Source: a virus (lineage: Duplodnaviria; Caudoviricetes). From it: a stretch of DNA of 61,359 nt. The position numbers were made by a program, and so were the translations under genes. The notes beneath the pieces were generated by a model. The model saw nothing but the letters and a program-made list of their open reading frames with translations. It did not search any database and was not told the origin of the DNA. The stretch spans positions 1 through 61,359 of the IMG/VR virus record IMGVR_UViG_3300037483_000835, one strand, 5' to 3'. Of the stretch, positions 4,960 through 46,979 are shown in pieces. How positions within the stretch are numbered: the stretch's first letter is position 1; each line of letters starts with the position of its first letter.

Positions 4960-7900
4960 CTACCAGGACTCCAGGCCGGCCCACCGTCTATTAACAGCCT
5001 CAGACAGATTGCCCGACACGCTACGAAGAGCCTGGAGCCGGCCCCACACCGCCTTGATGATGGTGTCGTCAACACCGTAGACCCTCATCTCTCGCTCGGT
5101 CATCTCGGGCGTGAAGTCCTCAACAAGCCACTTCTTGAGGATGTCATCCTCGTACTTGCCCAGACGCGGCATGTGCTTGATTCGCTCCTCGGGCGACTTC
5201 TTCTTAAAGTCAGAGTCCGGCGCGAACACGCGCAAGTAGAACGGAATAAAGCTCTTAGTGTCATGAGCAGGGTCGAACTTAGGGCCAGCCAGGGCGGCGC
5301 CGTGATCGATTAAAGCAACCGAGCCACCTTCGTTCACCAAAAGGTTTTGGCCGTGACTATCGGTATTACCCAGGATTCCATCCAGTAATGCCCATCGGTG
5401 AATCTGACCAGCCGAAAGATAAGGAGTCAATACTTCACGTCCCTTGTATTGCTTCTCCCGGTTTTTCTCGTCTAGAGACTTCCAGTCTGAGCCCAGCAGG
5501 CTGATAGCAGACCATTCCTGCGCGTTGACTATAATCAGCTCAGCGTGCGGGATAACTCCTCCGAGATGGACCTTATCCGCCACGTGCCAAAAGCACGCCT
5601 CACGACGGGGTTGACTCACCGAGCCATCTCGAGCGCCGGCTGCTGGAGACTGCTTCCCGCCTGGGGGCTTCAAGAGGAAAACCTTGCCTGAGTGAGGGTC
5701 GCGGCAAGCCATCGCGCCCCTCGAATGCTTACCGGACAACTTCAGATGAACCACGTTGCCGGCGCGTACGGCCCGCTCAACAGCTTCGGCAAAATCAACC
5801 GCCCTTTCGTTGCCAGGTTGAACAGAATGGATACCGATAGGCTGTGACCCCTCGGACTTTGATAGCGCCCGAGCCTTGCCACCCTGGAGCTGTACCACTG
5901 CGGCCAGCGCCCGCATATTCTTCTCAGAATCACCCAGGTCGACCGCATGCAACGCAGCACGCACCTCGTCGCCATAAACGGCCAGTCCCTGCTGGAACTT
6001 ATCCGCATCGAATCGCTTGCGCGCCAGGAAACACGCCGCCGCCAGGACCAGCTCAAATCGGTCGTTATGGCCAAGCTGTGCGAGGGCAGTGCGGTGCTCT
6101 CCGGGCTCGAGGTCACTGCCCGGCAGCGTCAACGCAGACAGCTCCGTCTGCTCCTTGCGCGGGCCTCCTTGGAATGGGAATTTGGGGTCACCAGACTCGT
6201 CCGGTCGATAATCTTTCTCTCCGTTAAACGCCGGCCCGCGTGAAAGAGACTCGCTCTTCCCGAATTTACGACCGGGCTGCGCCCACAACTTCTCGGCCTC
6301 CTCCGACTGCATATCACTGGGCAGTACCTTCTCACCCGTGGTGTTCTCGAAGTGCTGGTACATCGCGCTCGCGATACCCTTGCGCTGATGCTCGGGCTCG
6401 ACGTAAGTCAAATGCGGTATATTGCCGCCGTGACGCAGAGACAACCCAATAAGCGAACGTCCCACCTGTACGCCATTACGGTCGTGTGCGAGAACTTCCA
6501 GACCTGAGGGGTGAGGCTTCGACGAGATGGTGTAACCGAGGCTCGGGTCAAGGTCGCGCTTCTGGAAGGGCTTCCAGTTAATGGCGCCCTTAGGCTGGAT
6601 AATTTCGGCCTTGCCCGGCTGGTAGCTTTCATGGGGCTCGAAGAATACCTGCCGACCACTGTTCGAAACCCAAACTTTCTTCGCTGGCACGGCCCGCAGC
6701 TTAAATCCTTTTTGACGCAATTTACCGAGAGTGCCTGCACTGAACCACTCGACAGCATCCTCAGGCTTAACAAACCCAAAATTTACATCAGAGGGATGAT
6801 TATGCCATTCGTCCGTGCCCTGCCAGTCCTTAGTCGGGACTGGCCGTTTTGGCGTAACTTTTCCCGTACCGATACCTTCAGCGGCATAAGGGCCCCGACC
6901 CCAGTCATCCTCTATTCGATAAACTATACGAGGCTTCACCGGGTCATCATGTAATACGGCCATCTTCACCAATGGCTGCTCGCCCTTACTTAAACCGAAC
7001 GGACCTACCTCATGGAATGCCTTCGCCGCCAATTCGTCGGGATCATCGCCCACATTCGCAAGGTCGTCATACAGGTCCTTCGCCCAGCTCGCAGGACGAT
7101 ACGGACGGTAATTGTGGTAAGGAGGCTTCTTCGCGAACATCTTAGGATGCTTGAGCGAAAGGAGATGGGCCTTGGGATCGAACAGCTCCTTGCCTACCCG
7201 CAGCCACACATGCTCACCCTGGTCTTCCTTATCGCCATGTGGCCATGCGGCTGCGCCCGCATCCATCGCAGCCTTGACACCGCCTAGCGCCCCAATCCGA
7301 CGAACTACATCCGCTATACCACCACACTCCTTGTGTAGTTCGGGTGACAATTTGTGTACAACTTCCGTGGCGCGCTTCAGGTACTGGACCTGAGCCGAGT
7401 CGGGCTCTTCATTTACCGATACTGCCGGTCCCTTCCATTTCTGTTCAGGAGAAAGACCAGGATACATGTCAGCTCGTAGCGGTCCAGACTTCCCGTAGAC
7501 CGTCGCCATCTTTTGAAGATTCGCCGGTCGAATACCCGCAACCCTGACGTCGCCAGCTACTACGTCGTGTGGCCAGTAGACCCGGTCGTCGTAGTGCGTA
7601 GGCGGACTATCGGTCTCGAAGTAGACCAGCACATCACCCGCATCGCGGTCTTTCTCCCAAGCATGATAATGATAATCTTTCGCAGGATGCGCAAATACGG
7701 CTTGGCCGTCCAATATCTCGTCCGTAGGCTCGGTAGGAATTACCTTATCCTGGACGAGCCGACGAGCTTGGTCAAGGTTCTTGGCGCGGAAGAAGTAGCC
7801 CTGGTGCTCTTCGTCCTTCGAACGTTGCGACATCCATTCCCGTAGCTTCACCGGCCACCAGTCGGTTTCGGACTTGGCGAGAGGCTTGGGCCAGGGCTTG

Positions 7901-10122
7901 ATGAGATGTTGGGCGGCCTTACGAGCGGCGTAAGCGCGGCGGTCTCGAATAGCTCGCGCTAAGTCATGGTAGGGGTCGTTTTGCCATTGACCCTTGGGAC
8001 CAGGACCTACCTCAGTAGCGTGTGCCAGATACTCTTCGGGCGTCTGGTTCTTCTTCGGCCACGCCTTCGCTAGGACCTCGGGGTCGACAGTCTTGTTTCG
8101 ATACAGGGTCTCTCGAACGTCCTGATTCGGATGCAACGCAAGAGCCGCTACAGTGCTCGGAGCCAGACCCTTCGCCTGAGCGAGAATAGGCACAGCCGAG
8201 AATCCCTCGTTCGGGTGCGGAACCGAATCTAGGGCGCGCAACGTCCGGAGCTGTGAAATCTCCGACATCGGCGCTGCGTTCTGTCGGTGCGCCAGGTAGG
8301 GCAGCACTTCGAAAATGCCGTGACGTTCCGCAGCTTCAGTAAGAGCCTCGACAGCATCGTCACCGAGGTTGCGGTTCGCACCCATCTGCGCCAGGACTCC
8401 ATAGACACCATAAAAGCGCGCCTTGGTCGACAGAAATCGGTCGAGATCCGAATGGAACTTCTCATCCAGACGTCCACCCTTGTATTTGGTGTCGGTGTCT
8501 AATGGTTCTTTGCCAAACCCCCTCGCCACCTCGTCGCTCAGCTCGTTGATAAACTGCGCCGAGAAGGGGCCGGATGTGAACCGGTTGGAATCGATGTTCG
8601 GTACCTCGAGCGACGCCCGGCCGATACGGTCCGCTTGCTCCGACGTAATGTTGGGGTTCCGAAGCGCTACCGTACCTAACTGACCCATCGGGCCAGCATT
8701 TCGCTCAATACCAGATGGCGTCTGTTCGAACCCCGCCACGACCTTCTCCAGTACGTCCGGAGGCGAAAGAGGAGACTTGGCCAACTCATGAATAAAGTGC
8801 TCGGTTCTCGCATCTCCGGGCACATACTGACTTGCCAGCGTCCGTGCGGTGTCAGAAGTAGCCTGTGGGTGGCCCAATATACTCCCTACGCGGAGGGACA
8901 GCGGCGAGGTTGCAGACATCGCCAAAATCTTTTGGCTCAAGTCCTCAGTGGTCAGATTCGGGTTCTGAACGCTTGATGGCAGATTCGACGCCAGCGCCTG
9001 CTCGCGCGTGCGGAACTTAGTCTGTAGTAGGTGGCCCTCATTCAAATGAGGTACTCTCGTCCACGGCTTTCCGCCGGCCTGGGTAATGGCATCCAGAGTC
9101 TTAGGTCCTGCGCCGGAATGTTGTAGTATTTTAAGCGCGGATACTTCGCCGATATCCTCGGCCTTTGCCACATACCCAGCTAGCTCATCATCCGTTGCGC
9201 TATCATACCAGAGAGGACTCCTATGTCCACGAACCTGTTTTACATCGTGAGACTCGGCCTCAAACCGTGGCGTCGTGTGGGCAACTAAATACTCGTTCTC
9301 GTGGCCTGCATCACCTCCAGCGGCCTTGGGGCCATGCTGGTAACTATACCAAAGGTCCTTGAGGGGTACCCAGGCGTGATGCATATTAGAGCCAAATCCA
9401 CTATCTGCCAAATCACTCCATGAACTTAGAGCATGCTCATGGTCCATGATATCGGAATTTAGACCGCGAGTAAGAGCAACGTAAGGCTGGCCAGCGATAG
9501 TTCGGATATTGAGTCCGACCCCACGATTCAGCTCTGCGTGTAGCTTGGCCTTGTGGAGTAAAAGCTCCTCGGGGACACTTGGATGCTTCTTCATCCAGCC
9601 GTGCAAATCCGCCGGCACGAGATGACCATTCTTTTCGGAAGCCTTGCCCTTCTTGTGATGTTCCAAGAAAGCACTGTCCAGCCGAAGAGCGTCAGCAGGG
9701 TCATCATAATTATCGATATTGTTAATACGGTGAACAAGATACTTCATGAACACCGCAGCCGGCTGATGCGGTGTGAACTTATAGGCACGCCAGAGATGAT
9801 AAGGCTCCAGTCGCGTAAATTCCGGGTCACCCCGCAAAATGCGACCGGCCATATGTGAATCGGCCTCACGCTCCGAGGGGTTAAACTCGGCTCCCTCGTG
9901 AGACTTCCCCTCAATCCTAACTTTCGGCAGCTTCCGGTTCGGCGGGTCGAATTCCCGCTGGGCGTTTTCGTCCGCGCCCTTCAGAAACCTCTCAACGCCC
10001 TTATTCTGGCGCGCTAAACGCGAACCAATGGCTTCGGCGGGGGCTTCGTCAACCTGCCGCACACCGCTGGCCTCTTCGGTTGGAGGCGCGGCGGAGCTAA
10101 TCTTCTTTTTAGGGAGAGCCAT
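4960..10122 (-). CDS. giant polyvalent virion protein A (ADP-ribosyltransferase, helical repeats, Cys-His-Asp domain, GRGPY domain, GNAT, PI3/4-kinase-like)
   Basis: ART triad LTRG/SSWS/ENEYLV; ALRNPN-type repeats; EC..HVWL..DP; VEPEHQRKGIASAMY; LLKP..RE..DGILGNTDSHGQN..LIDHG. Confidence 0.85.
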   Translation of the reverse strand: MALPKKKISSAAPPTEEASGVRQVDEAPAEAIGSRLARQNKGVERFLKGADENAQREFDPPNRKLPKVRIEGKSHEGAEFNPSEREADSHMAGRILRGDPEFTRLEPYHLWRAYKFTPHQPAAVFMKYLVHRINNIDNYDDPADALRLDSAFLEHHKKGKASEKNGHLVPADLHGWMKKHPSVPEELLLHKAKLHAELNRGVGLNIRTIAGQPYVALTRGLNSDIMDHEHALSSWSDLADSGFGSNMHHAWVPLKDLWYSYQHGPKAAGGDAGHENEYLVAHTTPRFEAESHDVKQVRGHRSPLWYDSATDDELAGYVAKAEDIGEVSALKILQHSGAGPKTLDAITQAGGKPWTRVPHLNEGHLLQTKFRTREQALASNLPSSVQNPNLTTEDLSQKILAMSATSPLSLRVGSILGHPQATSDTARTLASQYVPGDARTEHFIHELAKSPLSPPDVLEKVVAGFEQTPSGIERNAGPMGQLGTVALRNPNITSEQADRIGRASLEVPNIDSNRFTSGPFSAQFINELSDEVARGFGKEPLDTDTKYKGGRLDEKFHSDLDRFLSTKARFYGVYGVLAQMGANRNLGDDAVEALTEAAERHGIFEVLPYLAHRQNAAPMSEISQLRTLRALDSVPHPNEGFSAVPILAQAKGLAPSTVAALALHPNQDVRETLYRNKTVDPEVLAKAWPKKNQTPEEYLAHATEVGPGPKGQWQNDPYHDLARAIRDRRAYAARKAAQHLIKPWPKPLAKSETDWWPVKLREWMSQRSKDEEHQGYFFRAKNLDQARRLVQDKVIPTEPTDEILDGQAVFAHPAKDYHYHAWEKDRDAGDVLVYFETDSPPTHYDDRVYWPHDVVAGDVRVAGIRPANLQKMATVYGKSGPLRADMYPGLSPEQKWKGPAVSVNEEPDSAQVQYLKRATEVVHKLSPELHKECGGIADVVRRIGALGGVKAAMDAGAAAWPHGDKEDQGEHVWLRVGKELFDPKAHLLSLKHPKMFAKKPPYHNYRPYRPASWAKDLYDDLANVGDDPDELAAKAFHEVGPFGLSKGEQPLVKMAVLHDDPVKPRIVYRIEDDWGRGPYAAEGIGTGKVTPKRPVPTKDWQGTDEWHNHPSDVNFGFVKPEDAVEWFSAGTLGKLRQKGFKLRAVPAKKVWVSNSGRQVFFEPHESYQPGKAEIIQPKGAINWKPFQKRDLDPSLGYTISSKPHPSGLEVLAHDRNGVQVGRSLIGLSLRHGGNIPHLTYVEPEHQRKGIASAMYQHFENTTGEKVLPSDMQSEEAEKLWAQPGRKFGKSESLSRGPAFNGEKDYRPDESGDPKFPFQGGPRKEQTELSALTLPGSDLEPGEHRTALAQLGHNDRFELVLAAACFLARKRFDADKFQQGLAVYGDEVRAALHAVDLGDSEKNMRALAAVVQLQGGKARALSKSEGSQPIGIHSVQPGNERAVDFAEAVERAVRAGNVVHLKLSGKHSRGAMACRDPHSGKVFLLKPPGGKQSPAAGARDGSVSQPRREACFWHVADKVHLGGVIPHAELIIVNAQEWSAISLLGSDWKSLDEKNREKQYKGREVLTPYLSAGQIHRWALLDGILGNTDSHGQNLLVNEGGSVALIDHGAALAGPKFDPAHDTKSFIPFYLRVFAPDSDFKKKSPEERIKHMPRLGKYEDDILKKWLVEDFTPEMTEREMRVYGVDDTIIKAVWGRLQALRSVSGNLSEAVNRRWAGLESW

Positions 10123-10128
10123 CGACCC

Positions 10129-10494: not shown

Positions 10495-10968
10495 TCAAGT
10501 AGAATGACGCAAAAACTGCGCGACAGCCTCCGCTATCTTGAGATGCTCTTCGACAGTTCCGTCATTCTTGACCACATTGGCCCTAAAAGAAACAACCGCT
10601 ATATTCCCGGGCTCATACCCCAGATTAGGGTCTATTCTGTCGAGTGAAGGAGAGCCGTCTTGACGAGGACCCTCGAAGACAAGACGAATCCCCAGGTAAG
10701 GACAAACGCCAGAGACCAGAGCCTTCTCCCACTCCACCCTCACATCCTCCACACTAATGGAGAAAACCTTGCCAAGGCGTTTGGCTCTATTTTTCGCTTG
10801 CAGCCACATGAATCTATCACGATTAGCCGCGCGCCAGGCCCTGCTGCGCTTTTTCTCGGTCTCTGGATGGGCACCTTGATAAACCTTCACACCAGCCTGA
10901 TGACAGGGCCTACATCTGCCGTTAGGATATCGCTCCGAGGAACCACACTTCTTACAGGGCCTACTCAT
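10495..10968 (-). CDS. HNH-type endonuclease with N-terminal zinc finger
   Basis: CKKC..CRPC, then CPY..SLDRIDP..GY..GN..S..AN..K; start ATG 10968 or TTG 10989. Confidence 0.8.
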   Translation of the reverse strand: MSRPCKKCGSSERYPNGRCRPCHQAGVKVYQGAHPETEKKRSRAWRAANRDRFMWLQAKNRAKRLGKVFSISVEDVRVEWEKALVSGVCPYLGIRLVFEGPRQDGSPSLDRIDPNLGYEPGNIAVVSFRANVVKNDGTVEEHLKIAEAVAQFLRHST

Positions 10969-11028
10969 ATCTACTAGATTACTGCTCAAGTTTTAGCAGC
11001 TAAAACTTGACGGCTCCGGCTATATCAC

Positions 11029-14000
11029 CTAGAGCCAACCCATGTGGCGGAATACCACGTCGTTATCACCATGAGCTAAATTAGATCGAACCTCTGGAGG
11101 CAGTCCCATCATAGCATCGACCCATACCAGCTCCGAGAACTCGTGGTCAGGGTCGAAGTCGGAATGTGGAGTCTGGTCTGAAACAGTAGTCTGGAACATG
11201 TACACCGGGATACCACCGGGCGCATTCGCTGCACCGAAAGCATGCATCGCCTCAGGAACGATACCAGCCTCCTCGTACAACTCTCGCACCGCGCCGGTAG
11301 CAGGGTCTTCACCGGGCTCGAGATGGCCGCCCGGCAGACAATACTTGCCGTCCTTCTGTCTCTTCCCTATCAAAATCTGAGCATTCTCGTTATAGACCAA
11401 GACACTCGCGGCGAGCGGCGGGTTCGAATCCTCGGCCTTCGCCATCGGCTGCGTGAGGACTTGATCCGTGACATGACCGATGGGCTGGTCCAGTTGCTCG
11501 TTCGCGAACCGAAACAGCTCGTCGGAGAAATCCTTGTGGACCTGTGGGTCAACCATCCAGCTCTTGATTTGCTGGTTCTCATCGCGGTCCGCAGCGTTCA
11601 CCGCCTGTAGCTTCTTGCCCAGCTCCGAATCCTCGTAGAGCGCCAGGTTGTAAGCGTTAACATGCGAAATGATGTCGCGGTTCTTCTTCAGCCAGTCCAT
11701 CGTGCGGCCGTACGTATTACGGTCCTCGCCCGGGAGTCCGACCATGATGTTGGGGATGAGGGATGAGCCCGCCTGGCGAATCTTCTGTGTCGCCTCGTTG
11801 ATGAGGGCCTCGTTCGCAGGCTTCTTGTGGGCCTTGAGGATGGGGTCGTTCACCGACTCGATACCCAACTCGACATGCCGGATACCGGCATCCCGGAGGA
11901 ACTCAGGTGTCATGCGCTTCATCTGCGCTGCGGTCGTCTGGATGACGAACCCCTTGAAATTGGGGTTTTGGGCTCGGATACGCTGATACAGCATTGGGAG
12001 CTGTACGTGGTTCGGGGCCTGACCAAACGTCTTATCGTTCAAGTAGATGAGGTCCGAGTCAAGGTGCTTACCAAAAGCGTCAGCCTGCTGAAGAACCTCA
12101 TCCATCGGCTTCTCGACTACTTGCTTGGGTACGCAACAGAACGTGCACTGGTGGCGACAGCCATCAGAGAGCGTCAACCGCGGGATAACCTTCATGCCTT
12201 GGAAGTGTCGGTAATCGTAGCCAGGCTTGTACTCGTGGCCCTCACTCTCGACAAACGACTGAACGCTCGGGTGGACCTGGACGTTCGGCAGCCCCTTGTA
12301 CATCGACATGTCGGTATAGCCGCCCACAGCAATATTCTGGCTCGGCACGGCCTCGGCTAGTTGACGGATGAACGGCGCGGTCACATCAAGCGAAGAGAAC
12401 GCCGCATTCTTGTAACCGGCGTGCTTCAGGAACTCAATAGCCTCCTTGGGGTCACGCACTGTGTAGTGGTCGACGTTCGGCATCGAATTGGCGATATGGG
12501 CCTGCCACTGAGGGACTTCCCAGAAATCTTCCCCGCGGTGATAACCTTCACGCTTTTGATATAGGCTATCGTAATAAGCATCAGACTGGTCTGGCTTACG
12601 GTCGCCCTGAAGGAGATGAGTCGAGAACTGGACCATCAAGGTTCGGCCAGCGTTACTCGGTTCGTGGTGCTGACGAACGTGAATGTTGGCCCCTCCTAGC
12701 GCCTGGGCGCCCCGAGGCTTCGCTTGAGCAGCCTGGGAGTAGTTCTGGTGCGGTGCGGTGACATGCGAGCCCTGAGGCTTAGTGTGGAAGCCTGGCGGGG
12801 TCTCTGGGTGGAGGTCTCCCGGCTCAGCCTTGCTCAGCAGCCTCTCACCAGGCAGGACATTATGCCATCCGTCATCTTCCTGCTTGCCTCGAGCATGGCC
12901 CTCCAGGATACGCAAGGTGGCTTCACGTAGCCCCGCCCGATGAGGCCCGCCGTCGTGCCATTCTTCATGCGGCTCCCAGTCTACCAACTCGACATGACCC
13001 AGGACCTTACCGTGACAATGGACCGTAGCGATAGCGGTGCCGGGCATGTGCGAAATGTTCAGCTTGTATCCCTCAGCATCGAGAGAGCCGGGGAGGGCGT
13101 GCTCCTGGAACGTATGCTGTGGTCGCTGCTCGCGCTGGTCTTCGTTCTTCCGCACCTCGTCTTTCCAGGTTGGTGCGGCGGGTACCTTTTTCTCAAGCTG
13201 ACGCTTCACCGAACCAAAAGTCTCGAACGTATTGTTACAGTGCGGACATTCACGGTACCCGCCACCCTTCGGCGAGTACGGCGCAACCGTGACATCCACC
13301 TCGGTATTACAGCTTGGGCAGCTCTTGAAGTAGTGTTGAGCTATGCTGGCCCTACCGACGTAATGAACGTTCTTTTGCGTCTTCAGCTCGCCATATTCGC
13401 CCGGTTTCATACCCAGCTTCTTCGAGGGTACGTCACGATACCCTACATAGAAGTGTCCCGGGAGCTTGCCCTCAGGCGACCCCAAGGAAATAACCGCCTT
13501 CGACTCAGGCTGCCAAATATGGATGGGCTCGCCGATGAGCGATTCACGCTTGGTTTCAACCTGGTCAGGACTCAAATCTCCGAGAAGACCAGCTTCGTAC
13601 GAAGGACAGTCCGAGTCTCGGGCGGGGTTGTTATTGTTGCACTGAAGCGCACCGCGGCTCGACACCAGCCTGGCACGCGCGCCGCACAGCTTACAATACT
13701 TCTTCTCTTGGGGTGTCCGGAGCCACTCGTGGAACGCCTCTTGGAGAACCTCGCTCGGATGCTTGCCACCGAAAAGGATATTGGAGATGGTCTTGTGAAC
13801 GTCCTCGTCGCCATACTCTTCAGCAGCGCGTTGCGCAGCTTCTTCAGGGTCTTCGCCAGCGTGGGCCGCCTGCTGGGCAGCTTGCCGAACAAAGGACTGA
13901 CCGAGGTCGGACTGTACCTCGTCGATGAAGATCCCTTGACCCTTGCCACCAGTGTAACGTACCCAGCCAATGCCTGCTGGGCCCACCGGGTGCGACGACT

Positions 14001-15573
14001 GCTGGCTCGCTTCGTACATCTTCTGGAACTTATCGTAAACCCCAGCCTTCTTCATCTTCTCGACCTGATCCAGAGTCGTGTTGAGTTGGAAGACCTTTGA
14101 ATCGTCGTCGGAGTGACGTTGTGCACCTTCCCACTTATCGTGCGTCACGTTGTAGGGAATGCGCTGCGAATTGTCGATAGCCTGCTGAAGGCCCGCAGCC
14201 GATATGTTGCCATTCTTAGCTCGGCCAGCACTCCAGTCACCCGCCGGCATCTGCTTCGGCGGCAGCTCCGTCTTGCCTTTCGAGAGGATGAAGTCGCGAG
14301 CTTGACGCAGCTTATTCGTACCGAAAGCTACAGCAACCTTATCATCAGCGAAGAGGTCTGGATTAGTCCAAGCGTGGCCGTCCTCCTGTAGCTGCTTCTT
14401 CAGTCGAGGGAAGGCGCGAATGTGTTCAGCCATCTGCTCCGGGCTGGAAATACCATTCCGGATTAAGTCATACGCCATCACGGAATCTTTGCTTTTGATA
14501 GCGTGGTCATGTAAGTCATCAGCTAAACCGGGAACCTGACCCACAAGACCCGAAGCTCGAGACGCTATCATCTCCGGGAAGCCGGCGTTAAATACCTCGT
14601 TCAAGAACTCCGGCTTATAGTGATGGTTCTTAGAGAGGAACTGATCCAGGTCCCGGTGGTCGAAGGTCTGCGGGTCGCCGTACTCCTCTTTTCTCGTACG
14701 TAACTGGTCTAGGATGAGCTTGTGATGTTCGGGGTAGGGGGTCTGTGTGATGGCGCGACCGCGGAGCCACTGGCCATCCTTCAGCTTGAACGCAGGGTGA
14801 GTGCCGCGGAGTAGTTCTTCGTATGCCTCTTCAGGCAGCCTACCCGGCTCGGTACTGAGCAGCTTCTGAATGCCGTTGACGGGCTCTTCATAAATGAGCC
14901 GGTCGCTATTCGGCGCAGCGACTTCACGGTATGCAGCATCGGTCAAGTCCTGCCAAGCGTCCCGAATCTCCGACTCGGACAATACATTCGCTGGACTCTC
15001 CTGCCCGGCATGAGCGCGCGCAGAGTATTCGGGCCAGGCACCTCTTTGGCCCAGGAGTTGGGCCCAGCCAATTTCCTTGGCGGCGTGACGACGCTGTTCA
15101 CCCGTGATTTCGCCCTTGTATATGCGCCTAGCTATACCCTCGGTCGAAGTCGTGCTCTTGGCTATCTTCGCGCGTTGCACCGCATTCTTAAACACGGGCT
15201 CCGGAAGCGGGGCGCGACTGTTCAAAAGCCCACCCGCGAACTTACCCATCTGCGGCCCCAGCAGATCTTCAGCCTCCCTTTCAGCCCAGGCATACTCCTC
15301 AGGAGTAATGTCACTATTGGCACCTGGACGCTCGCTAAACGGTACCTGCTCGTATTGGTCTCGAGGCTCGACAGGATGCGTTGCTCTGTAGGCTACGTCC
15401 CAGGCACGACCGGACGTGTTCAGGTCGACGGCGCTCATCATCATGAGCAGCGCTGGGCCATCAAACGACATGCCTGGCTCACCCAAGAAGCGACCCATGT
15501 CGTCCACGGGTCGACCTTTGTCGATGAAATTCTCTTTCAACCACTGAGCAGTGATAGTAGCTGGCCGGGGCAT
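11029..15573 (-). CDS. giant polyvalent virion protein B (EVQSD domain with Zn ribbons, radical SAM, Nudix hydrolase)
   Basis: IDEVQSD domain; GCRHQCTFC (CxxxCxxC) with ELGIES and IMVGLPGE; Nudix box GGHLEPGEDPATGAVRELYEEAG. Confidence 0.88.
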   Translation of the reverse strand: MPRPATITAQWLKENFIDKGRPVDDMGRFLGEPGMSFDGPALLMMMSAVDLNTSGRAWDVAYRATHPVEPRDQYEQVPFSERPGANSDITPEEYAWAEREAEDLLGPQMGKFAGGLLNSRAPLPEPVFKNAVQRAKIAKSTTSTEGIARRIYKGEITGEQRRHAAKEIGWAQLLGQRGAWPEYSARAHAGQESPANVLSESEIRDAWQDLTDAAYREVAAPNSDRLIYEEPVNGIQKLLSTEPGRLPEEAYEELLRGTHPAFKLKDGQWLRGRAITQTPYPEHHKLILDQLRTRKEEYGDPQTFDHRDLDQFLSKNHHYKPEFLNEVFNAGFPEMIASRASGLVGQVPGLADDLHDHAIKSKDSVMAYDLIRNGISSPEQMAEHIRAFPRLKKQLQEDGHAWTNPDLFADDKVAVAFGTNKLRQARDFILSKGKTELPPKQMPAGDWSAGRAKNGNISAAGLQQAIDNSQRIPYNVTHDKWEGAQRHSDDDSKVFQLNTTLDQVEKMKKAGVYDKFQKMYEASQQSSHPVGPAGIGWVRYTGGKGQGIFIDEVQSDLGQSFVRQAAQQAAHAGEDPEEAAQRAAEEYGDEDVHKTISNILFGGKHPSEVLQEAFHEWLRTPQEKKYCKLCGARARLVSSRGALQCNNNNPARDSDCPSYEAGLLGDLSPDQVETKRESLIGEPIHIWQPESKAVISLGSPEGKLPGHFYVGYRDVPSKKLGMKPGEYGELKTQKNVHYVGRASIAQHYFKSCPSCNTEVDVTVAPYSPKGGGYRECPHCNNTFETFGSVKRQLEKKVPAAPTWKDEVRKNEDQREQRPQHTFQEHALPGSLDAEGYKLNISHMPGTAIATVHCHGKVLGHVELVDWEPHEEWHDGGPHRAGLREATLRILEGHARGKQEDDGWHNVLPGERLLSKAEPGDLHPETPPGFHTKPQGSHVTAPHQNYSQAAQAKPRGAQALGGANIHVRQHHEPSNAGRTLMVQFSTHLLQGDRKPDQSDAYYDSLYQKREGYHRGEDFWEVPQWQAHIANSMPNVDHYTVRDPKEAIEFLKHAGYKNAAFSSLDVTAPFIRQLAEAVPSQNIAVGGYTDMSMYKGLPNVQVHPSVQSFVESEGHEYKPGYDYRHFQGMKVIPRLTLSDGCRHQCTFCCVPKQVVEKPMDEVLQQADAFGKHLDSDLIYLNDKTFGQAPNHVQLPMLYQRIRAQNPNFKGFVIQTTAAQMKRMTPEFLRDAGIRHVELGIESVNDPILKAHKKPANEALINEATQKIRQAGSSLIPNIMVGLPGEDRNTYGRTMDWLKKNRDIISHVNAYNLALYEDSELGKKLQAVNAADRDENQQIKSWMVDPQVHKDFSDELFRFANEQLDQPIGHVTDQVLTQPMAKAEDSNPPLAASVLVYNENAQILIGKRQKDGKYCLPGGHLEPGEDPATGAVRELYEEAGIVPEAMHAFGAANAPGGIPVYMFQTTVSDQTPHSDFDPDHEFSELVWVDAMMGLPPEVRSNLAHGDNDVVFRHMGWL

Positions 15574-37600: not shown

Positions 37601-38300
37601 TGTAGTTACCGGCCGTAATGGTTTTGGCTAGAATGTTGAGACGGTCGGTCAAGTCGCTCACGTCGTGGATTTCGGGGTCGCAAGCGATGGTCGGGGAACC
37701 GCCGAGTCGGCGCTGGTCAGGATTTTCATGCTTCTTTGTGCCAATAAGGAACGCGAGCGGGTCCTCCGGCTGCGTAGACTCAGACACCTTCTTCGAATCG
37801 TCCTCACCATCGGAAATGACACCCGATATGGCGCTCTTATTCGCCGGTTTGATAGTGAGAGCCACCCTTCTCGCAATGGTCCTATCCAACATGGGACCGT
37901 TCTGTTCCAGAGTGGAACCTTCGATACTGTATCGGATAAGGATAGGCAGGCCCTTATTCCTGTAGTGACGGACCATGGCGGCACAGGCAACCGCACCAGG
38001 GTGCCCCTCGTCGTTGAATAGTTCCACCTTCCCGTAGATGAACGGGACCTGCACAAAGTCCCAATACTCTCTCTCTCGAGCGTTTGAACAATCACCCCGA
38101 GTGAAAATTTTCTTGGCGTACGTCACTCGGCCTACATGGTCGTTCGCGCTGTGGCCCGGGTCCTTGTCTCCAAGGTGCTCCCAATTTGCTGTGGCACGAC
38201 CAGCCTGAAGGTCGCTGATATCAGCACCCTTTATAACGACGATTTCGGCGCTGGAGTCGGGCTGCTCCGACGCAAAAACCCCGTCCAATATCATTCCCAT
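34623..38300 (-). CDS. prohead protease fused to capsid-arm mimic, HhH-GPD glycosylase-like domain and PI3/4-kinase-like domain
   Basis: N-terminal NWEH..YSIEG..VALTIKPAN (HK97/S78-type protease); GFAPKT..VVPDTHF; YVKP..HRE..DQVDRHSGN..LNDNG. Confidence 0.85.
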   Translation of the reverse strand: MGMILDGVFASEQPDSSAEIVVIKGADISDLQAGRATANWEHLGDKDPGHSANDHVGRVTYAKKIFTRGDCSNAREREYWDFVQVPFIYGKVELFNDEGHPGAVACAAMVRHYRNKGLPILIRYSIEGSTLEQNGPMLDRTIARRVALTIKPANKSAISGVISDGEDDSKKVSESTQPEDPLAFLIGTKKHENPDQRRLGGSPTIACDPEIHDVSDLTDRLNILAKTITAGNYNAAPGSLTGGAALQREDFGRELHDVGFAAKAKAALRDYDPDKHGPFKEYAKHSLPEASDSFLDRFAEAVGDWKVTKQQMLAKAEDEEVQEPGGRITRSGSGMSTGSTAFKAKQKKYEHKLKGIQAAVAAPKQVGLPGMGVVTDEGPALPPAESPEFKVRTGKRLKHGEAYFDHGGGVLHTADGRFKVYIPDLNDRGYGEILKDPGLNHIHDTALKNWVMVHKTMRAGKAPQEMVALASLFSAMSPNTAVPMQELAYGHLMDMMGPPTGKGGFEGLDPTKELSRKELARYAKEWNSISKGQHLPAWERDHFAKRTSGIWTEEGRRYIIGLGAQKWGGVKNYHELHETLVDLVAKHGTDARTIAGLLNDMKQRAGTKKQGEDPDVKGFAPKTIRYLLGMMGAGNVVVPDTHFIRHTFGLHTADPRSDVLKKYLWNEKNEPLLAEIDKYYLAHHPAVAHTRAKIQQQFGEDLGEQALFPSFWLHWLTIQPHEKRRGWFERGQAKNAETDHGVFWNAVKRVLTKYGIPHDHRLIKHEMDDGGSMAARVAHATKELENQFGFVPATLALYSTMIPAVLHNKELAKAEALAEQLQELAKGEPKVKKPKAVPFSGKMVFPGELEILEGPHKGKFPLLDIGSEWHHVDDGGSVRKVKAGAKSYRINSEPKASGLGFQLVDAKKHGAPGLSEHPDQQAMLHGMDLAKEALPRQVGERRGMSAAQAGNETGWRQSRAGHISYVKPNFAMNSHLGVFNQEGFTTAHREATFHNLAKNFFKLGQHVPTTAVFHHPTTGQPYSAQRRVEDVEHYEPSNPEHGATIERLRHMGQLDKLALMDMILDQVDRHSGNYMLTPKKAPYIHLNDNGLSMYGEDEVPNVPHYWSANTGNEWVEEPLHPEAVAWAQKLNPQKLGDMMERLGVPQKQRAESVRRLGALQNRLANKSPDGKPFVFKNPPVTKGAAYYSPFLETSYGRANVEDVAAAHNPATEDRTPSGAELGRMT

Positions 38301-38339: not shown

Positions 38340-38519
38340 GCTCTTGACGAATACTTCGGATTTCAGTAGGGTGCTCCTTGCGAGGCGATGCCGGCTCGCA
38401 CGCACGAGCGGCTAGGCGTGGGTGCGTCAAACCCAGATGACCTAGCCGACCCGAAAGGGGTAAGCCTCACTTGTTGGTTCGGGGCACCGAAGAACAAGGA
38501 CAGGCAGCCGGCCATACAT

Positions 38520-38882
38520 ATGAACGAGACCATCGTTTACCGAGTGCAGGACCGATTTGGAAGAGGTCCCTATCGCTGCGACGACATGAACGTAGCGCCA
38601 AACGTGGATTGGCTGAGACACCCCGCGCCGCGCGAAGACTTCGAGGTCTTCAACTGCCGAGAAGATGGTTGGTACTCGGCATTCATAGAGTTGATTCGGC
38701 CATACAAATTCGGATTTCCCACTCTCCAAGCAGCCTTCAACTGGTTCCACGAAGACGAACTCCAAGAAATGTCTCAGCTCGGATTCCACTTGGTCGAAAT
38801 CAAGGCTGAGTCAGTGGTAGTCTCGGACTCCGGACGGCAGTGCATTTTCATCCCACTTGACAAGTTCTACGCGAATATGTAG
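38520..38882 (+). CDS. stand-alone GRGPY-domain protein, paralog of a module in protein A
   Basis: IVYRVQDRFGRGPY..FGF..WF..GF..SDSGRQ matches protein A at about 6630-6935. Confidence 0.75.
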   Translation: MNETIVYRVQDRFGRGPYRCDDMNVAPNVDWLRHPAPREDFEVFNCREDGWYSAFIELIRPYKFGFPTLQAAFNWFHEDELQEMSQLGFHLVEIKAESVVVSDSGRQCIFIPLDKFYANM

Positions 38883-42190: not shown

Positions 42191-42196
42191 CTTTTT

Positions 42197-42732: not shown

Positions 42733-42861
42733 TACTGACATGGCCAAGACCAACGAAAAGCCGGCGCGTGAACCCTGGACCTACGTATGTGATGTATGCG
42801 GCAAGAAACACGTCATCGGCTGCAACCACGAGGCCGCCGTTCGTCTGGGGCAAGTGAAGCC

Positions 42862-43095: not shown

Positions 43096-43101
43096 GGCAA
43101 C

Positions 43102-43404
43102 ATGACCAAGACCGAGCTGTATTTCGGACGCAATTCACCCAACGGCCACATCGACGACAATCAATTCCGTGAGTTCCGCCGCCAGGAAATCGAATCGCGC
43201 TTCGAGGGCTTCTCACTCTTCGACGGGCTCGGCTGCTGGAAGGGTTATGCCGAGCACTGCAAGGTACTGGTCGTGATTTGGGACAACACCCACCAGAATC
43301 TATACGACAGCTACAAAATCGACGCCATTCGCTCGGCTTACGTCAAGAGGTTCAGTCAGGAGTCGGTGATGCGCGTCGACCAGGAAGTGAAGGTCGAGTT
43401 TTAG
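43102..43404 (+). CDS. DUF3574-like protein
   Basis: ELYFGRN..RF.GF..G.G.W..E..KVL..I..IR.AY..F.QESV.RV pattern. Confidence 0.7.
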   Translation: MTKTELYFGRNSPNGHIDDNQFREFRRQEIESRFEGFSLFDGLGCWKGYAEHCKVLVVIWDNTHQNLYDSYKIDAIRSAYVKRFSQESVMRVDQEVKVEF

Positions 43405-44825
43405 AGCGGCTTCAGGGGTATGTGCGTCATACCCGAACGGCGTGCGGCCTCGAGCTGTTCGTGTCCCTGGTCCACCAGCCACGTGCCGTTGCCCTGGTCC
43501 ATGGCGGTAACCGGCGGAACCTTGTGACCCTGACCACGGGCAAAATTGGCCTCGTGGAGGGAGGTCTTCCACTCCTCGTGATTGTTCGTCGGGATAACCT
43601 GAGCGATAGGGGCGCTTACCAGTCCCTCGTGTCCGGCCGGCGACCAAGTCTTCGTCTCGGGCTTCTCCTCGGCGAAGCCTGGCACCTCGTAGCCGAGAGC
43701 GCGGTAATGTGGCGCGAAGTCGTGGCGCGCAAGCGGGATAACCTGGCCGTTCTTGCGGTCGATGGTGAGTCCCGCTTGCTTCAAATATTTGTTACGCAGC
43801 ATGTCATCGTCGATGGGCTTGGCGCCCGAGACATGGTTGCGCTTCATCGGGATGGGCCGCGCGGTAGGCAACGACGGGTGATTCCAGATGACGTGCCCGC
43901 CATCCTCGCGCTCGACCGCCCAACCGTAGTGCTCGAGGGCTCGCTTGAGGTCGGCGTACTTCACGTCATACTTCATCAGCGGCTCGCCGAACTCGTCCTC
44001 GGTCTTGTTCAGCCCTAGTTTCTTCCGACGTGCTTCGAGACCTGAGGTGGGACGTTCCTTAAACCCGTGCTGATAATCGTACTCGCGATGGTCGGCGTGC
44101 ACCCAAGAGATACGACCTTGGCCATCGAACCCGAACCCGGGCAGGACGGTGGCTAGAGCACACCGGCAGTGTGGATGCATCAAGTGCCAACTTGGGACAT
44201 TCTCTCCTCGAATATGATATTCCGTTGACACCTCGCTAGAACGAAACACGCGCGGAGTGAATCCGTCCGGAAGCAAATGGACGCGTCGACACTCCTTACA
44301 CAAGGCCGTATCCTTCACCGGGATAAAACACACGACAGGGTCTTCGACGCCCAGGCCGTCATTCACCTGGTCTATCCCCTCTTTTACACCGATGGTCTGA
44401 GCGTGCTGAGTCTCGGAAGCAACGACCGACTGAACGCCGTTCTTGACCTTACCCCAAAGCTCGGCCAGCTCACCTTCGACAGCAGTATTCCAGTCCTCTG
44501 GCTTCAACTGGCCCTGGTCAATATCGTGAAGCAGACCTTGTAGCCGGCGCTTCGTGTCCGCCTTAGCCTGCGCACGATGCTTGTTGATGAAATCCTCGGC
44601 CACCGAGGCGATACCCTCAACGATTTCAGTATCTACTCTCCCGCCCTCTTCACTAACGGCCGCAGAAAAGATGCCGGGCAGCGTGAAATCATGGGTGTAT
44701 CCGATGAACAGCTTCTTCCCGGTGAACGCGCCGCCGAGCAAACGCGTAAGCAGGGTGTCGAATATATCATCCACCTCCGCGTCGATAGCCGCCCGTTGCT
44801 GGGCGTTCAGTCTAGGTACGGACAC
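43401..44825 (-). CDS. MuF-like minor head protein with C-terminal HicA-like and ParB/Srx-like domains
   Basis: CKEC..HPHCRC; L...GW...R..G.H..W.HP...IP...H; PPV...G.W.V.QGHEQ..AA...G...IP; follows the portal gene. Confidence 0.8.
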   Translation of the reverse strand: MSVPRLNAQQRAAIDAEVDDIFDTLLTRLLGGAFTGKKLFIGYTHDFTLPGIFSAAVSEEGGRVDTEIVEGIASVAEDFINKHRAQAKADTKRRLQGLLHDIDQGQLKPEDWNTAVEGELAELWGKVKNGVQSVVASETQHAQTIGVKEGIDQVNDGLGVEDPVVCFIPVKDTALCKECRRVHLLPDGFTPRVFRSSEVSTEYHIRGENVPSWHLMHPHCRCALATVLPGFGFDGQGRISWVHADHREYDYQHGFKERPTSGLEARRKKLGLNKTEDEFGEPLMKYDVKYADLKRALEHYGWAVEREDGGHVIWNHPSLPTARPIPMKRNHVSGAKPIDDDMLRNKYLKQAGLTIDRKNGQVIPLARHDFAPHYRALGYEVPGFAEEKPETKTWSPAGHEGLVSAPIAQVIPTNNHEEWKTSLHEANFARGQGHKVPPVTAMDQGNGTWLVDQGHEQLEAARRSGMTHIPLKPL

Positions 44826-44828
44826 GAG

Positions 44829-46979
44829 CTACCCCTTCTTAGGAGGCACAGCATCAGTCGCGATATCAGCAATGCGGCGGACCCTATGCTCCATATCACG
44901 CGCGAAGGACTCCATAATGGCCTTATTGGCGGCCAACGTGCGAGCGCGGAGGCGCTGCTTCGAAGGCGGCATATTGCGCTCACCCTTAGTTAGCAGATTC
45001 TCAGACTTCGATACCATAGACAGGAGCTGGTCAACACCGGTCGAGAGGTCGTCCCCTCCACCACCGCCCTGAGGAGGCGTCACGCCGCCAGCAGCGGCGC
45101 TAGCGTCCTGAGTAGGCTCAGAGGGCTGGCCGCCTGAGCCGCCGGCCGGAGGCTGGCCTCCAGGTCCTTGTGGCGGCGCCATGGCTGCCTGCTGTTGCTG
45201 CATAGCCTGCTGTTGCTGCATGGACTGCTGCTGTTGCTGCCAGAACGGGTTCTGATAAAACGCCAGAGAGGGGTCCTTGCTTGCCCCTTGTTTACCACAC
45301 CAGAATTCCAGAATCTCACCAAAAGTCATGTAAGACTGGATATACTGGTAGAACGTCGGGTTCAGCGGAATGTCGGCGCCCGTGAACTTCGGGAACTGCT
45401 TTTTCTCCAGCTTGCTTTGGATGTCGTTAAAGGACATCCACACGCCCATATCCTGCTGGATACGAACAGACTCCTTCTCCTCCGTGTCGACGTCCAATCC
45501 TATAAGCCTCAGCTTAACAACCTTGGCTAACTCGGGATCGATAAGAGGAAGGATGGAACTATTCAGGAAGTCCTCGAAAGAAGCAAGCAGCGGCCTGATG
45601 CCTACATCACGGGCGGCAGTCAGCTTGTACTCTTCGTTTGATTCGCTCAGAGCCTGGTTGTTAGTGCCGCGCGAAAGATGTTGATATCCAGGAAGCTCTT
45701 CAGGCGACATCTGGAAGGCCGCGAGGATGGTCCTGCAATTCGCATCGGCAAGGTACTGAAACTCCATATCCCGGCCGCCGCCGGAATCGATGGGAGCCCA
45801 GGTTAACTCATCCTCCGGGCCGATACCGAACACTGGCATGCGCCACGCGTTCTGTACCGAGTTAATCGAGGCGTTAAATTGTTGTTTGACCCCTTGTACA
45901 ATCTCAGGGTCGATATCTGCCGACTTAATGATAAGCATGCCGCGGGCTGCGCGGCCAGTCTGAAAGTAGAGTCGGTTATGATGCGTGATGTTGATGTGAG
46001 TCGTAACCGCAGTCAATGCCGTATCAAGCGGCGTGACCGGATAACCCATCTGCTCGATGTCTGTAACGTTATACGGAGAGTGAACGAGCATCTCTTGAGC
46101 GCCAAACGCCTGCATCGGCCGGCCCTCAAACACCTGGACCCAAGCGTACTCTTCGTTTTCGAACTTCTCCTTCTTCAGCTTTTCGTTCTTGAGGTTCTCC
46201 ATCAGTCGCAGGGCTGACTCACGGACCTGCTGATTGACTTCATGATACGGCGCGGCGTAATAAATCGTACCAGCGTCCGTAGGGCGGAACGAATGGAACT
46301 TGCGGCGTTCCTTGTCGTTCGGTGCATCGGGATCAGGCGTCCAAACAACTTCTGTGGCCATCCGACCGACGACTATGCAGTTGCGCGCCTGCATGTATAG
46401 ATATTCAGCGAACGAACACTTCTCTTGCTCGCTCCAGCCATTCGTATTACCACACGTCGACAGCAACTTCTCCGCACGGTTGATACGAGTCTGGAGGCGC
46501 TCCCGGCCCTCTTCGTCCAGCTTCTCTTCGATGTCCTTTTCAGTCTCTAGCTTGAAGCCCTTGCCATGCCGGTCGGCCTGTTTGCGGCCGAACTGAGCGA
46601 CGTGATTCGAACGCGTGTGAACAACGGCAGCAACGAGGTCATCCTGGATAGCCATACGCTTCAGTAGGCTGTCAGGAACACCTTGCAATTTCGGCCGATA
46701 AATACCAGCGTACTCAGTGATACGCTGTGGGTCACGTTCGAAAGCAAGACGCTCGAGGGAGTCATCAGGCCCATCTAGAGCATTCATCACGCTCTTTTGA
46801 AGCTTCGTGCCTACGGCCAGCTCGGCACGACCTAGAGGCGCTCCTTGGGAAGGGTTCACATATAGCGCACGCATGTTCGCGTGAACACGCTCTTGATTCT
46901 GAGACTTACGCAGGATACCAGCCGACCGCTCAACGGTTGGCAGCTCGGTCATCACGAGTCCGTCGAGGAGGCTTGCCAT
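44829..46979 (-). CDS. portal protein
   Basis: Portal-like G..PL..A, YF..G..RG.L, DMEFQ.L, AFQMSPEEL, GIRPLL; downstream of terminase; Gln/Pro-rich tail. Confidence 0.88.
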   Translation of the reverse strand: MASLLDGLVMTELPTVERSAGILRKSQNQERVHANMRALYVNPSQGAPLGRAELAVGTKLQKSVMNALDGPDDSLERLAFERDPQRITEYAGIYRPKLQGVPDSLLKRMAIQDDLVAAVVHTRSNHVAQFGRKQADRHGKGFKLETEKDIEEKLDEEGRERLQTRINRAEKLLSTCGNTNGWSEQEKCSFAEYLYMQARNCIVVGRMATEVVWTPDPDAPNDKERRKFHSFRPTDAGTIYYAAPYHEVNQQVRESALRLMENLKNEKLKKEKFENEEYAWVQVFEGRPMQAFGAQEMLVHSPYNVTDIEQMGYPVTPLDTALTAVTTHINITHHNRLYFQTGRAARGMLIIKSADIDPEIVQGVKQQFNASINSVQNAWRMPVFGIGPEDELTWAPIDSGGGRDMEFQYLADANCRTILAAFQMSPEELPGYQHLSRGTNNQALSESNEEYKLTAARDVGIRPLLASFEDFLNSSILPLIDPELAKVVKLRLIGLDVDTEEKESVRIQQDMGVWMSFNDIQSKLEKKQFPKFTGADIPLNPTFYQYIQSYMTFGEILEFWCGKQGASKDPSLAFYQNPFWQQQQQSMQQQQAMQQQQAAMAPPQGPGGQPPAGGSGGQPSEPTQDASAAAGGVTPPQGGGGGDDLSTGVDQLLSMVSKSENLLTKGERNMPPSKQRLRARTLAANKAIMESFARDMEHRVRRIADIATDAVPPKKG

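Follow-up and report, generated by a model that had tools for sequence, protein, structure and literature searches.

A lysine-centred motif at module borders of polyvalent head-module proteins in a fragment of an Mx1-like myovirus: candidate prohead-protease sites

In this study, we analysed a viral DNA of 61,359 bases (IMG/VR record IMGVR_UViG_3300037483_000835; Duplodnaviria, Caudoviricetes), hereafter the window, and confirmed that a short lysine-centred motif, hydrophobic-x-Lys-[Ser/Ala/Gly]-Glu, recurs far beyond chance in its head-module proteins, among them three giant proteins (A, B and C), and that it is specific to these proteins. Our favoured reading, to which we assign a probability of about 60%, is that the motif represents prohead-protease sites which dissect polyvalent cargo proteins into separate proteins. 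The window is a fragment of an Mx1-like myovirus with a head module of the Herelleviridae type (SPO1/SP-10), since the nearest phage with a name, Myxococcus phage Mx1 (a myovirus of 169.6 kb), has the same gene order and a capsid protein 56.5% identical, and since Bacillus phage SP-10 (Herelleviridae) is matched by the capsid, the portal and the MuF-like protein.

The strict motif was defined as [LIVMFYW]-x-K-[SAG]-E, and its chance level was obtained from residue shuffles of each protein (1000 rounds). It was found 21 times in seven head-module proteins (five sites in A, three in B, four in C, three in a scaffold-like protein, one in a GGDEF protein, three in the protease fusion and two in the portal), and for the 12 head proteins as a set (9086 amino acids, aa) the expectation is 2.49 +/- 1.59, with no shuffle out of 1000 reaching 21. 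The remaining 48 open reading frames (ORFs; 9273 aa) hold two sites, against 2.38 expected: VSKAE in an SbcC-like ORF (58857-61079) and MKKSE in the first residues of a doubtful 59-aa ORF. Within the interval 4960-46979, the strict motif is present in only 7 of 30 minus-strand ORFs, and thymidylate synthase, endonuclease VII, transglycosylase and the connector proteins carry none. Five control variants were all at expectation in the head set (1.7-2.5 expected each), being counted twice for the reversed motif, three times with R for K, once with D for E, three times with Q for E and three times with the hydrophobic residue at -1. Furthermore, K[SAG]E stands 23 times in head proteins, 21 times with a hydrophobic residue at -2.

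An initial annotation of this DNA had listed instances of the motif, all of which were found in the translations, and the enrichment over shuffled controls on which its idea depended is borne out, with the specificity controls at expectation. Its count of about 19 strict sites was slightly low, VAKAE (A, residue 318) and IYKGE (B, residue 151) being absent from its list; likewise, the single non-virion site that it reported, VSKAE in SbcC, is present and is one of two. The looser forms that it had also named are not significantly enriched as a class (25 occurrences of [LIVMFYW]-x-K-[SAGTMN]-[AVILDN] against 18.5 expected, a number reached by 82 of 1000 shuffles); LAK alone is enriched in the head set (14 against 4.1 expected; 0 of 1000 shuffles), and some loose sites are invariant in homologues, namely LAKTV and LQKSI in C and LAKTI in the protease.

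The restriction of the motif to head-module proteins, which the initial annotation had described for the window, was seen again in Mx1 and in three IMG/VR relatives with complete or near-complete genomes, where portal-to-sheath proteins were compared with all others (relatives are cited below by our G and L numbers). The relative G002 was omitted from these head-versus-rest counts because ORF choice picked opposite-strand ORFs over its capsid and portal, and L015, with a match of 32% over 137 residues only, was not counted as a relative. When tripeptides were scanned in five genomes, KSE was the most head-enriched of 4671 that were adequately counted (60 in head proteins and 23 in the rest, 7.4-fold, Fisher p = 8.6e-19), with PKP in second place (p = 7e-8). 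Hydrophobic-x-KSE was found 47 times in head proteins and 8 times in the rest, and substitution of K, S or E by any other residue gave no comparable head enrichment. In Mx1, 18 strict sites lie in portal-to-sheath proteins and 14 elsewhere, for a whole-genome expectation of 14. Among 24 non-head proteins of at least 800 aa in Mx1, G001, G003 and G005, which include sheath, baseplate, polymerase and one terminase, none has a site except one protein with one and another with two.

Public data yielded 296 homologues of the protease fusion (E <= 1e-3) and 1577 relatives of C. A total of 302 strict sites was counted in 157 polyvalent relatives of C, against 50.4 expected (6.0-fold), and 199 in 119 protease-fusion homologues, against 43.0 (4.6-fold). 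In SP-10 (positions 2657-7359), the portal tail, the protease and the scaffold-like protein carry VSKSE, LKKSE, VSKSE, VAKSE and LTKGE; because these SP-10 head proteins carry the same motif, it appears to go with this protease lineage and to predate the Mx1-like clade. In the contig of G005 (54067-56071; L034), two adjacent proteins immediately upstream of the tail sheath repeat a unit M-[PA]-K-P-N-L-P-K-S-E four times, and these repeats look like tandem modules, each terminating in the site.

By their predicted domain content, A, B and C can be classed as polyvalent proteins, with several unrelated and mostly enzymatic domains in each chain. All three are encoded on the minus strand, as are all features below unless stated otherwise, after the head and connector genes, and their Mx1 homologues lie between the capsid and the tail sheath. 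Polyvalent modules occur at many positions in hundreds of proteins; homologues of C carry PF18760 ART-PolyVal, PF18814 and PF02195 ParB, signature domains that were not found in the window's own proteins.

Protein C (1651 aa; 15574-20529) was described from Pfam and PHROG hits, an AlphaFold model and seven collinear homologues, 49-56% identical. Its architecture comprises a GNAT domain, an unknown domain, a phrog_12251 module, an HExxH module, a further GNAT domain, a helical/LRV region and a 330-aa domain, and the GNAT fold has a VIA Z score of 11. AlphaFold models were made for residues 1-1200 of C (mean predicted local distance difference test score, pLDDT, 78) and for residues 1-1200 of the protease fusion (mean 82). 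The strict sites of C are FYKSE (residues 319-323; 19561-19575), kept as K[SNAT]E in 7/7 covering homologues and overlapping a segment with pLDDT < 50 (321-325); LQKSE (462-466; 19132-19146), which is helical and reads L-x-K-[SAT]-E in 8/8 sequences; MKKSE (714-718; 18376-18390), in the pLDDT < 50 segment 709-721, followed by the invariant LQKSI (721-725; 18355-18369); and FVKSE (896-900; 17830-17844), in the pLDDT < 50 segment 882-902. The HExxH module (residues 477-700; 18430-19101) contains HEAQH, with H594, E595 and H598 invariant in eight sequences, which suggests a zincin-like peptidase; VIA gave no assignment of its fold, the list being filled by GNAT matches. One public protein collection has C as a 1622-aa product starting at Met30 (P0121; start region 20442-20529). 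If this start is right, LAKMA (27-31), listed in the initial annotation, straddles the start codon; homologues are longer and have L-x-K-[AMS]-I there.

Protein B (1514 aa; 11029-15573) comprises N-terminal regions, a copy of the 330-aa domain, a radical SAM domain (residues 1135-1295; Pfam Radical_SAM, E 9e-16) and a NUDIX domain (1386-1488; E 3e-19). The strict-motif scan gave IYKGE (151-155; 15109-15123), LSKAE (913-917; 12823-12837) and MAKAE (1377-1381; 11431-11445), the last directly before NUDIX, where alignments to five relatives start at residues 1381-1391. PHROG family 15528, annotated as portal protein, matches this NUDIX module; some portal proteins thus seem to be fused to NUDIX, a precedent for NUDIX as head cargo. 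The 330-aa domain common to B (13339-14361) and C (15595-16542) is 58% identical between them, the B copy having a Cys-rich insertion, and has relatives in G001, G005 and L016. In a search for related loci, the single B sequence of this domain recovered none and the alignment of the two paralogues recovered one.

Protein A (1720 aa; 4960-10122) has a PI3/PI4-kinase-like module (residues 1423-1720), which matches proteins of seven relatives, a phrog_1106 match (1066-1166) and a weak GNAT signal (1235-1261). The strict-motif scan found VAKAE (318-322; 9157-9171), LAKSE (748-752; 7867-7881) and FGKSE (1287-1291; 6250-6264), besides LSKGE (1044-1048; 6979-6993), 19 residues before the homology with ORF 38388-38882 and phrog_1106, and LSKSE (1420-1424; 5851-5865), before the kinase-like module. 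By alignment offset, the latter corresponds to LKKGE at residue 336 in Mx1 and LAKSE at residue 147 in L012; in the stand-alone kinase protein of L012 (440 aa), the site at about residue 147 could mark a propeptide. The ORF at 38388-38882 (plus strand; 164 aa), 31% identical to A 1027-1167, is a stand-alone paralogue of the phrog_1106 module.

As the initial annotation had supposed, the sites lie at module borders; they also lie in predicted linkers, and modules are shuffled between the window, Mx1 and other relatives with sites flanking them. The sites of C at 319, 462, 714 and 896 are kept as hydrophobic-x-K-[S/A/T/N]-E in the five to eight homologues covering them, LAKTV (474) and LQKSI (721) are invariant, and additional modules inserted in some C homologues end in a site of their own. 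Between the window and Mx1 the modules are reordered and the sites align, MKKSE at C 714 with Mx1 MKKAE at 129, and LSKSE at A 1420 with the LKKGE named above. The NUDIX module, C-terminal in B with MAKAE before it, is N-terminal or internal in four relatives and is then followed by [LIV]-[QK]-K-[SA]-E (4/5 relatives). The module at C 333-470 (M2) also occurs as stand-alone proteins of 118-131 aa that end two to six residues before the position of LQKSE. A strict site lies within 45 residues of the end of this module in 28/77 cases on the C side (plus 15 protein ends) and in 31/77 on the N side (plus 25 protein starts); among about 190 GNAT module borders on each side, 34-38 have such a site on the C side and 54-58 on the N side. 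For random windows taken from proteins of the same 157 relatives, a strict site is nearby in 7-8% of cases.

The predicted structures agree with this placement. In the two AlphaFold models, six of seven strict sites fall in segments with pLDDT < 50, which account for 13% of residues (binomial 3e-5). Of the 131 strict sites counted in 75 protease-fusion homologues, 63 map to these segments of the fusion (15% of the length), and another 45 map to the loop 760-769 (block mean pLDDT 50), where the window has LIKHE.

The protease is the N-terminal domain of a fusion polyprotein (1225 aa; 34623-38300) that continues with a linker, a copy of the capsid N-arm, an HhH-GPD-like domain and a domain with a PI4K/Fam20-like kinase fold. 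We assign the protease domain (residues 1-165; 37806-38300), on profile and model evidence, as a probable assemblin-fold, Peptidase_S78-related prohead serine protease of the HK97 type with predicted catalytic His42 and Ser125. In hhalign, the profile of the 76-sequence family matches the SP-10 procapsid protease with a probability of 97.2% (E 3e-11, 172 columns), aligning the His motif (NYEH/NYDH) and the Ser motif (YSIEG/FSIEG), and the SP-10 protein in turn matches Peptidase_S78 (PF04586; E 6e-9, 36.6 bits, cut-off 21). Moreover, VIA-align superposes model residues 1-151 on T4 gp21 (5jbl_A) with Z 10.6 and a root-mean-square deviation (rmsd) of 2.4 Å over 121 aligned of 165 residues, and on the varicella-zoster virus protease (1vzv_A) with Z 9.6 and rmsd 3.0 Å over 116; no HK97-family structure was among the 50 VIA matches listed, and Foldseek with the whole 1200-residue model returned kinase matches only. 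The residues H42, S125, E127 and G128 are invariant in the 76 sequences, and the gene lies between the portal and the scaffold/capsid genes, in synteny with Mx1 and SP-10. The serine protease that the initial annotation had recognised by YSIEG is therefore upheld, with an assemblin fold, S78 kinship and an invariant Ser125 and His42.

Four sites stand in the fusion. The loose LAKTI (residues 224-228; 37617-37631), whose Lys226 is invariant in 76 sequences, lies in the pLDDT < 50 segment 225-256, and the strict sites are LAKAE (313-317; 37350-37364), in the segment 307-331, LAKAE (811-815; 35856-35870), in the segment 809-813, and LAKGE (824-828; 35817-35831), in the segment 822-833, all with pLDDT < 50. 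Behind the protease domain and a disordered linker, LAK is followed by TITAGNYNAAPGSLTGGAALQRED, a copy of the capsid N-terminus, in which LVK is followed by ALEAGQYNAAPSTLVQGSALQIED; the pattern common to both is K-[AT]-[LI]-x-A-G-x-Y-N-A-A-P...A-L-Q-x-E-D. The copy comprises fusion residues 227-256 (37533-37622), the pair as a whole spanning 37533-37631 in the fusion and 29890-29958 in the capsid gene. The protease and capsid of SP-10 share the same pair. This arm copy may be what brings the protease into the prohead, together with any domains that follow it in the fusion. The HhH-GPD DNA-glycosylase-like domain (36081-37100) has a VIA Z of 14.1 to Tm1821 over 207/209 residues, a match that needs the caution due to helical folds, and it also resembles the queuine-salvage DUF2419; the kinase domain (34722-35801) is PI4K-II/Fam20/CotH/HipA-like (VIA Z 17.6), and some homologues of the fusion carry GGDEF domains instead. 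Since these HhH-GPD-like and kinase-like domains stand behind the protease, the protease gene itself would encode a cargo-bearing polyprotein.

Other head proteins also carry the motif. The portal (716 aa; 44829-46979), identified by Pfam Phage_portal and the PHROG portal family and 50% identical to that of Mx1, has VSKSE (residues 656-660; 45000-45014) and LTKGE (663-667; 44979-44993) near its C-terminus, and a C-terminal portal site is also present in Mx1, G001, G005, L007 and SP-10. The GGDEF protein (314 aa; 33172-34116; Pfam GGDEF at residues 56-175) has MGKSE after the cyclase domain (235-239; 33400-33414), and the Mx1 'nucleotide cyclase' aligns only with its residues 1-193. In the scaffold-like protein (360 aa; 30019-31101), encoded directly upstream of the capsid gene, the sites are INKGE at residue 82 (30844-30858), MGKSE at 247 (30349-30363) and LKKSE at 296 (30202-30216). 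Searches of Pfam and PHROG gave no family match for this protein, and tblastn against the phage collection gave no match; its homologue has two or three strict sites in every relative examined, and an alignment of nine sequences has at least five aligned L-x-K-[STAG]-[ED] columns.

A HicA mRNA-interferase toxin domain (Pfam HicA_toxin, residues 291-353; 29 bits, cut-off 27) is fused to the MuF-like minor head protein (474 aa; 43401-44825), which has no strict site; its LNKTE (residues 272-276; 43998-44012) lies where the 268-aa Mx1 homologue ends. Residues 14-252 match that Mx1 protein and residues 162-241 match SP-10 gp137, and a Pfam search gave no MuF match. By eye only, the C-terminal stretch resembles a ParB/Srx-type motif (...DQGHEQLEAARRSG...), and the Mx1 homologue stops before such extras. 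The major capsid protein (473 aa; 28567-29988; phrog_752, E 2e-41) also lacks a strict site. Its N-terminal L-V-K-A-L-E-A-G (Lys13; 29944-29958) is conserved, the K-A-[LMI]-[ED] column being kept in 9/9 aligned capsids and SP-10 reading NLNKALEAG, and Lys13 is presumed to be the maturation site. The capsid and scaffold alignments omit L006, L014 and L008, the last of which has the same sequence as L007 where the two overlap.

In our favoured reading, the protease would recognise hydrophobic-x-Lys-[Ser > Ala, Gly]-Glu in exposed linkers and would cut next to the lysine, the scissile bond being presumed to be Lys-Ser by analogy with Lys-Ala in the capsid L-V-K-A-L-E. A cut after the lysine is suggested because the capsid and protease K-A and K-T sites lack Ser-Glu, and because of two known capsids: that of HK97 is cut between Lys103 and Ser104, and that of A511 (Cps; Herelleviridae) reportedly matures at a Lys-Ser bond, which our literature search did not verify. 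The precursors would be co-assembled into the prohead, which the protease fusion would enter via its capsid-N-arm copy; once activated, the protease would make its cuts inside the prohead, in the capsid propeptide, scaffold and portal tail, in its own chain and at the polyvalent joints. The modules so released (GNAT, NUDIX, radical-SAM, kinase-like, HhH-GPD-like and others) would remain in the head and then pass into the host along with the DNA. Modules that travel with a flanking site could therefore be reshuffled freely among relatives.

The data bear out the interpretation of the initial annotation in part, with good support for the site-like behaviour of the motif and for its link to the protease, and two parts of that annotation went further than these data. 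It had proposed that any domain flanked by the motif becomes cargo, which is unsupported, since the motif marks joints and the targeting element is found only in the protease fusion, as the arm copy; and it had counted more than 15 free enzymes, an overstatement, as the strict sites would divide A, B and C into 15 fragments, only about half of them with a recognisable enzymatic fold. A wider generalisation, which we hold only tentatively and at a little under even odds, is that across the Mx1-like clade, which is large and mostly uncultured, the capsid protease doubles as a polyprotein processor, with a portable unit of module plus L-x-K-S-E tag by which any enzyme module could be inserted into a packaged chain and set free in the capsid, a dozen or more effectors per virion and a protease that ferries cargo through its arm copy. 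The effectors named in this proposal are acetyltransferases, NUDIX, radical SAM, kinases, the DNA-glycosylase-like domain, the nucleotide cyclase and the HicA nuclease.

Several points weigh against the favoured reading. Cleavage, the scissile bond, the encapsidation of A, B and C, and injection are all steps that we infer. Hydrophobic-x-KAE and -KGE are only about 2.3-fold head-enriched, and giant proteins with a single strict site exist in G001 (1949 aa), G005 (1308 aa) and G002 (1437 aa). The capsid's own site is K-A-L-E, not a strict K-[SAG]-E, so that either the protease tolerates more than the motif allows or the cut in the capsid lies at another place. Strict sites are missing at many borders (34/77 and 21/77 for M2, and about two thirds of GNAT borders), and the ends of BLAST high-scoring segment pairs in A-C show only a modest excess near sites over random (48% against 34%, P = 0.018). 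The site at Lys464 of C is the exception to the predicted linkers, lying in a confident predicted helix (pLDDT about 82) that continues beyond the module end. With regard to the protease, its N-terminal domain had no match in Pfam (E up to 10), in PHROGs or in phmmer and profile searches against PDB sequences, its S78 link runs through one intermediate, SP-10, and the HExxH module of C could itself act as a peptidase. Finally, the capsid-N-arm copy was sought in A, B and C and was seen only in capsids and protease fusions.

Four rival explanations were considered. The motif might be a selected linker element that is never cut, serving as a docking or packaging signal (for scaffold, capsid interior or protease) or as a flexible-joint cap in chains that work intact, and the helical site of C fits such a role. 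Descriptions exist of an N4 virion RNA polymerase and of some plasmid polyvalent proteins delivered unprocessed (PMC5512222). We consider an uncut element unlikely, however, because the motif recurs in the scaffold-like protein, in the portal tail and in the protease, classes of protein reported as prohead-protease substrates in HK97 and T4 (PMC9024508), because it is related to the capsid N-terminal site conserved from SP-10 to the clade, and because a docking signal need not sit at nearly every chain joint. Slightly less probable still is that the motif is cut and the pieces are not injected, acting instead late in the cytoplasm, with the polyprotein as a means of expression, or forming a disposable internal core that is degraded and expelled like scaffold. 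A search of A, B and C gave no targeting signal, and clearly non-virion metabolic genes (thymidylate synthase, endonuclease VII) are interspersed in the same block, both of which would suit it; yet these interspersed enzymes lack the motif and the polyproteins have it, and S78-type proteases are thought to act inside proheads. The GNAT, kinase and NUDIX domains and, in homologues, ParB and ART-PolyVal are, moreover, the repertoire of polyvalent proteins that have been proposed to be packaged (PMC5512222).

We regard it as improbable that the HExxH module of C does the cutting, in the manner of zincin-like metallopeptidase (MPTase) domains and with the prohead protease uninvolved. The invariance of H594, E595 and H598 and the proposal that zincin-like metallopeptidases process polyvalent proteins (Iyer et al., 2017; PMC5512222) would fit, but only 22 of 157 relatives have the module, and among the other 135 the motif is still 5.9-fold enriched; BLAST found no copy in Mx1, G001, G002, G003 or G005, where the head enrichment persists, and SP-10 head proteins carry the motif too. 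It is hardly credible that composition, helical bias or post-hoc choice produced the motif: it was indeed derived from the same proteins in which it was counted, but the hypothesis-free scan ranks KSE first of 4671, the motif variants are at expectation, and the same enrichment is seen in independent genomes and among 276 database proteins. On the tripeptide scan, the shuffle controls and those 276 proteins, a compositional artefact was excluded.

Regarding the genomic context, almost every gene between about 3 kb and 56 kb is encoded on the minus strand. The transcription order starts with the large terminase (48030-50024), followed by a 338-aa protein, the portal, the MuF-like protein with HicA, a block of small genes and the protease fusion; it continues with the GGDEF protein, two Ala/Thr-rich proteins, the scaffold-like protein, the major capsid, connector-region genes interspersed with thymidylate synthase and lytic transglycosylase, and then C, B and A. 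An endonuclease VII-like protein (10495-10989), the lytic transglycosylase (23365-24024) and the thymidylate synthase (25237-26064) lie within this structural block, all without the motif. The two Ala/Thr/Gly-rich proteins (31127-31612 and 32021-33148), between the GGDEF and scaffold genes, also lack the motif and had no family match in Pfam or PHROG; their N-terminal halves look alike by eye (...SLGL[TA]Q[ST]VYTPHI...), and they may be decoration or head-fibre proteins. On the plus strand, a GroEL-like chaperonin (56524-58374) and the SbcC-like recombination nuclease (58857-61079) both have Mx1 homologues, and the ORF at 574-1836 has, by eye, a K-x-D-G ligase-like motif.

Among known systems, the closest likeness is to maturation by S78 proteases of the HK97 type (HK97 gp4, Herelleviridae), in the position of the gene between portal and capsid, the predicted assemblin fold, the conserved His/Ser and the profile kinship to SP-10. 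HK97 gp4 removes the N-terminal domain of the capsid protein (PMC9024508). Unlike that system, the protease here heads a 1225-aa fusion with HhH-GPD-like and kinase-like domains, has no direct Pfam match, and its presumed site recurs inside three giant multi-enzyme proteins. A, B and C also resemble the polyvalent proteins described earlier from phages and conjugative elements, in which two to fifteen unrelated and mostly enzymatic domains share one chain, are encoded among virion genes and undergo rampant shuffling (PMC5512222), with GNAT, kinase and GGDEF named among their domains (PMC5512222). How such proteins are processed is an open question, and the only printed proposal found is that they process themselves through zincin-like MPTase domains within the chain (Iyer, Burroughs, Anand, de Souza and Aravind, 2017; PMC5512222); the term 'prohead' appears a single time in the main text of that article. 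In contrast to that proposal, a repeated short site tied to the capsid protease marks the joints here, and most relatives lack HExxH.

T4 gp21 and the phiKZ/SPN3US group offer a further parallel, with an assemblin-fold protease and a short motif in many head-internal proteins, whose products are there injected with the DNA. The phiKZ protease recognises S/A/G-x-E and cuts after Glu. For T4 gp21, the cut is described after Glu at I/L-x-E (PMC12991175), and in SPN3US all identified cleavages other than self-cleavage remove N-terminal propeptides (PMC10052503). By contrast, the motif in the window is Lys-centred, K, S and E are each required, and a motif with Glu at P1 is not what is seen; A, B and C have multiple internal sites and would be dissected into modules instead of losing a propeptide. 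With its HicA toxin domain, the MuF-like minor head protein recalls MuF-toxin fusions, and P1 packages large anti-defence (Dar) proteins with N-terminal targeting into its head, as T4 also packages targeted effectors (PMC9024508). Unlike the proteins described here, MuF-toxin and P1 Dar carriers hold one effector each and lack protease sites that recur along the chain.

Our literature search, which covered article texts, found no paper on the virion proteins of Mx1 or its relatives or on a K-S-E prohead-protease motif. If the reading is true, a site code readable from sequence would allow the mature cargo proteins of an entire phage clade to be predicted, would explain the free shuffling of modules and would provide a natural rule for designing capsids that load and release foreign proteins. 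Since Mx1 is cultured and shares the system, the idea is directly testable there.

As an analogy only, the polyproteins of eukaryotic RNA viruses and retroviruses combine one chain, one protease and short linker sites between modules; here, the setting is a tailed double-stranded DNA phage, and processing is presumed to take place inside the procapsid. In brief, what sets this system apart is the combination of a protease of the S78 lineage with a Lys-centred site repeated at the joints of multi-enzyme chains, and this repetition at joints points to polyprotein-style dissection rather than propeptide removal, and to a shuffling unit made of a module plus its tag.

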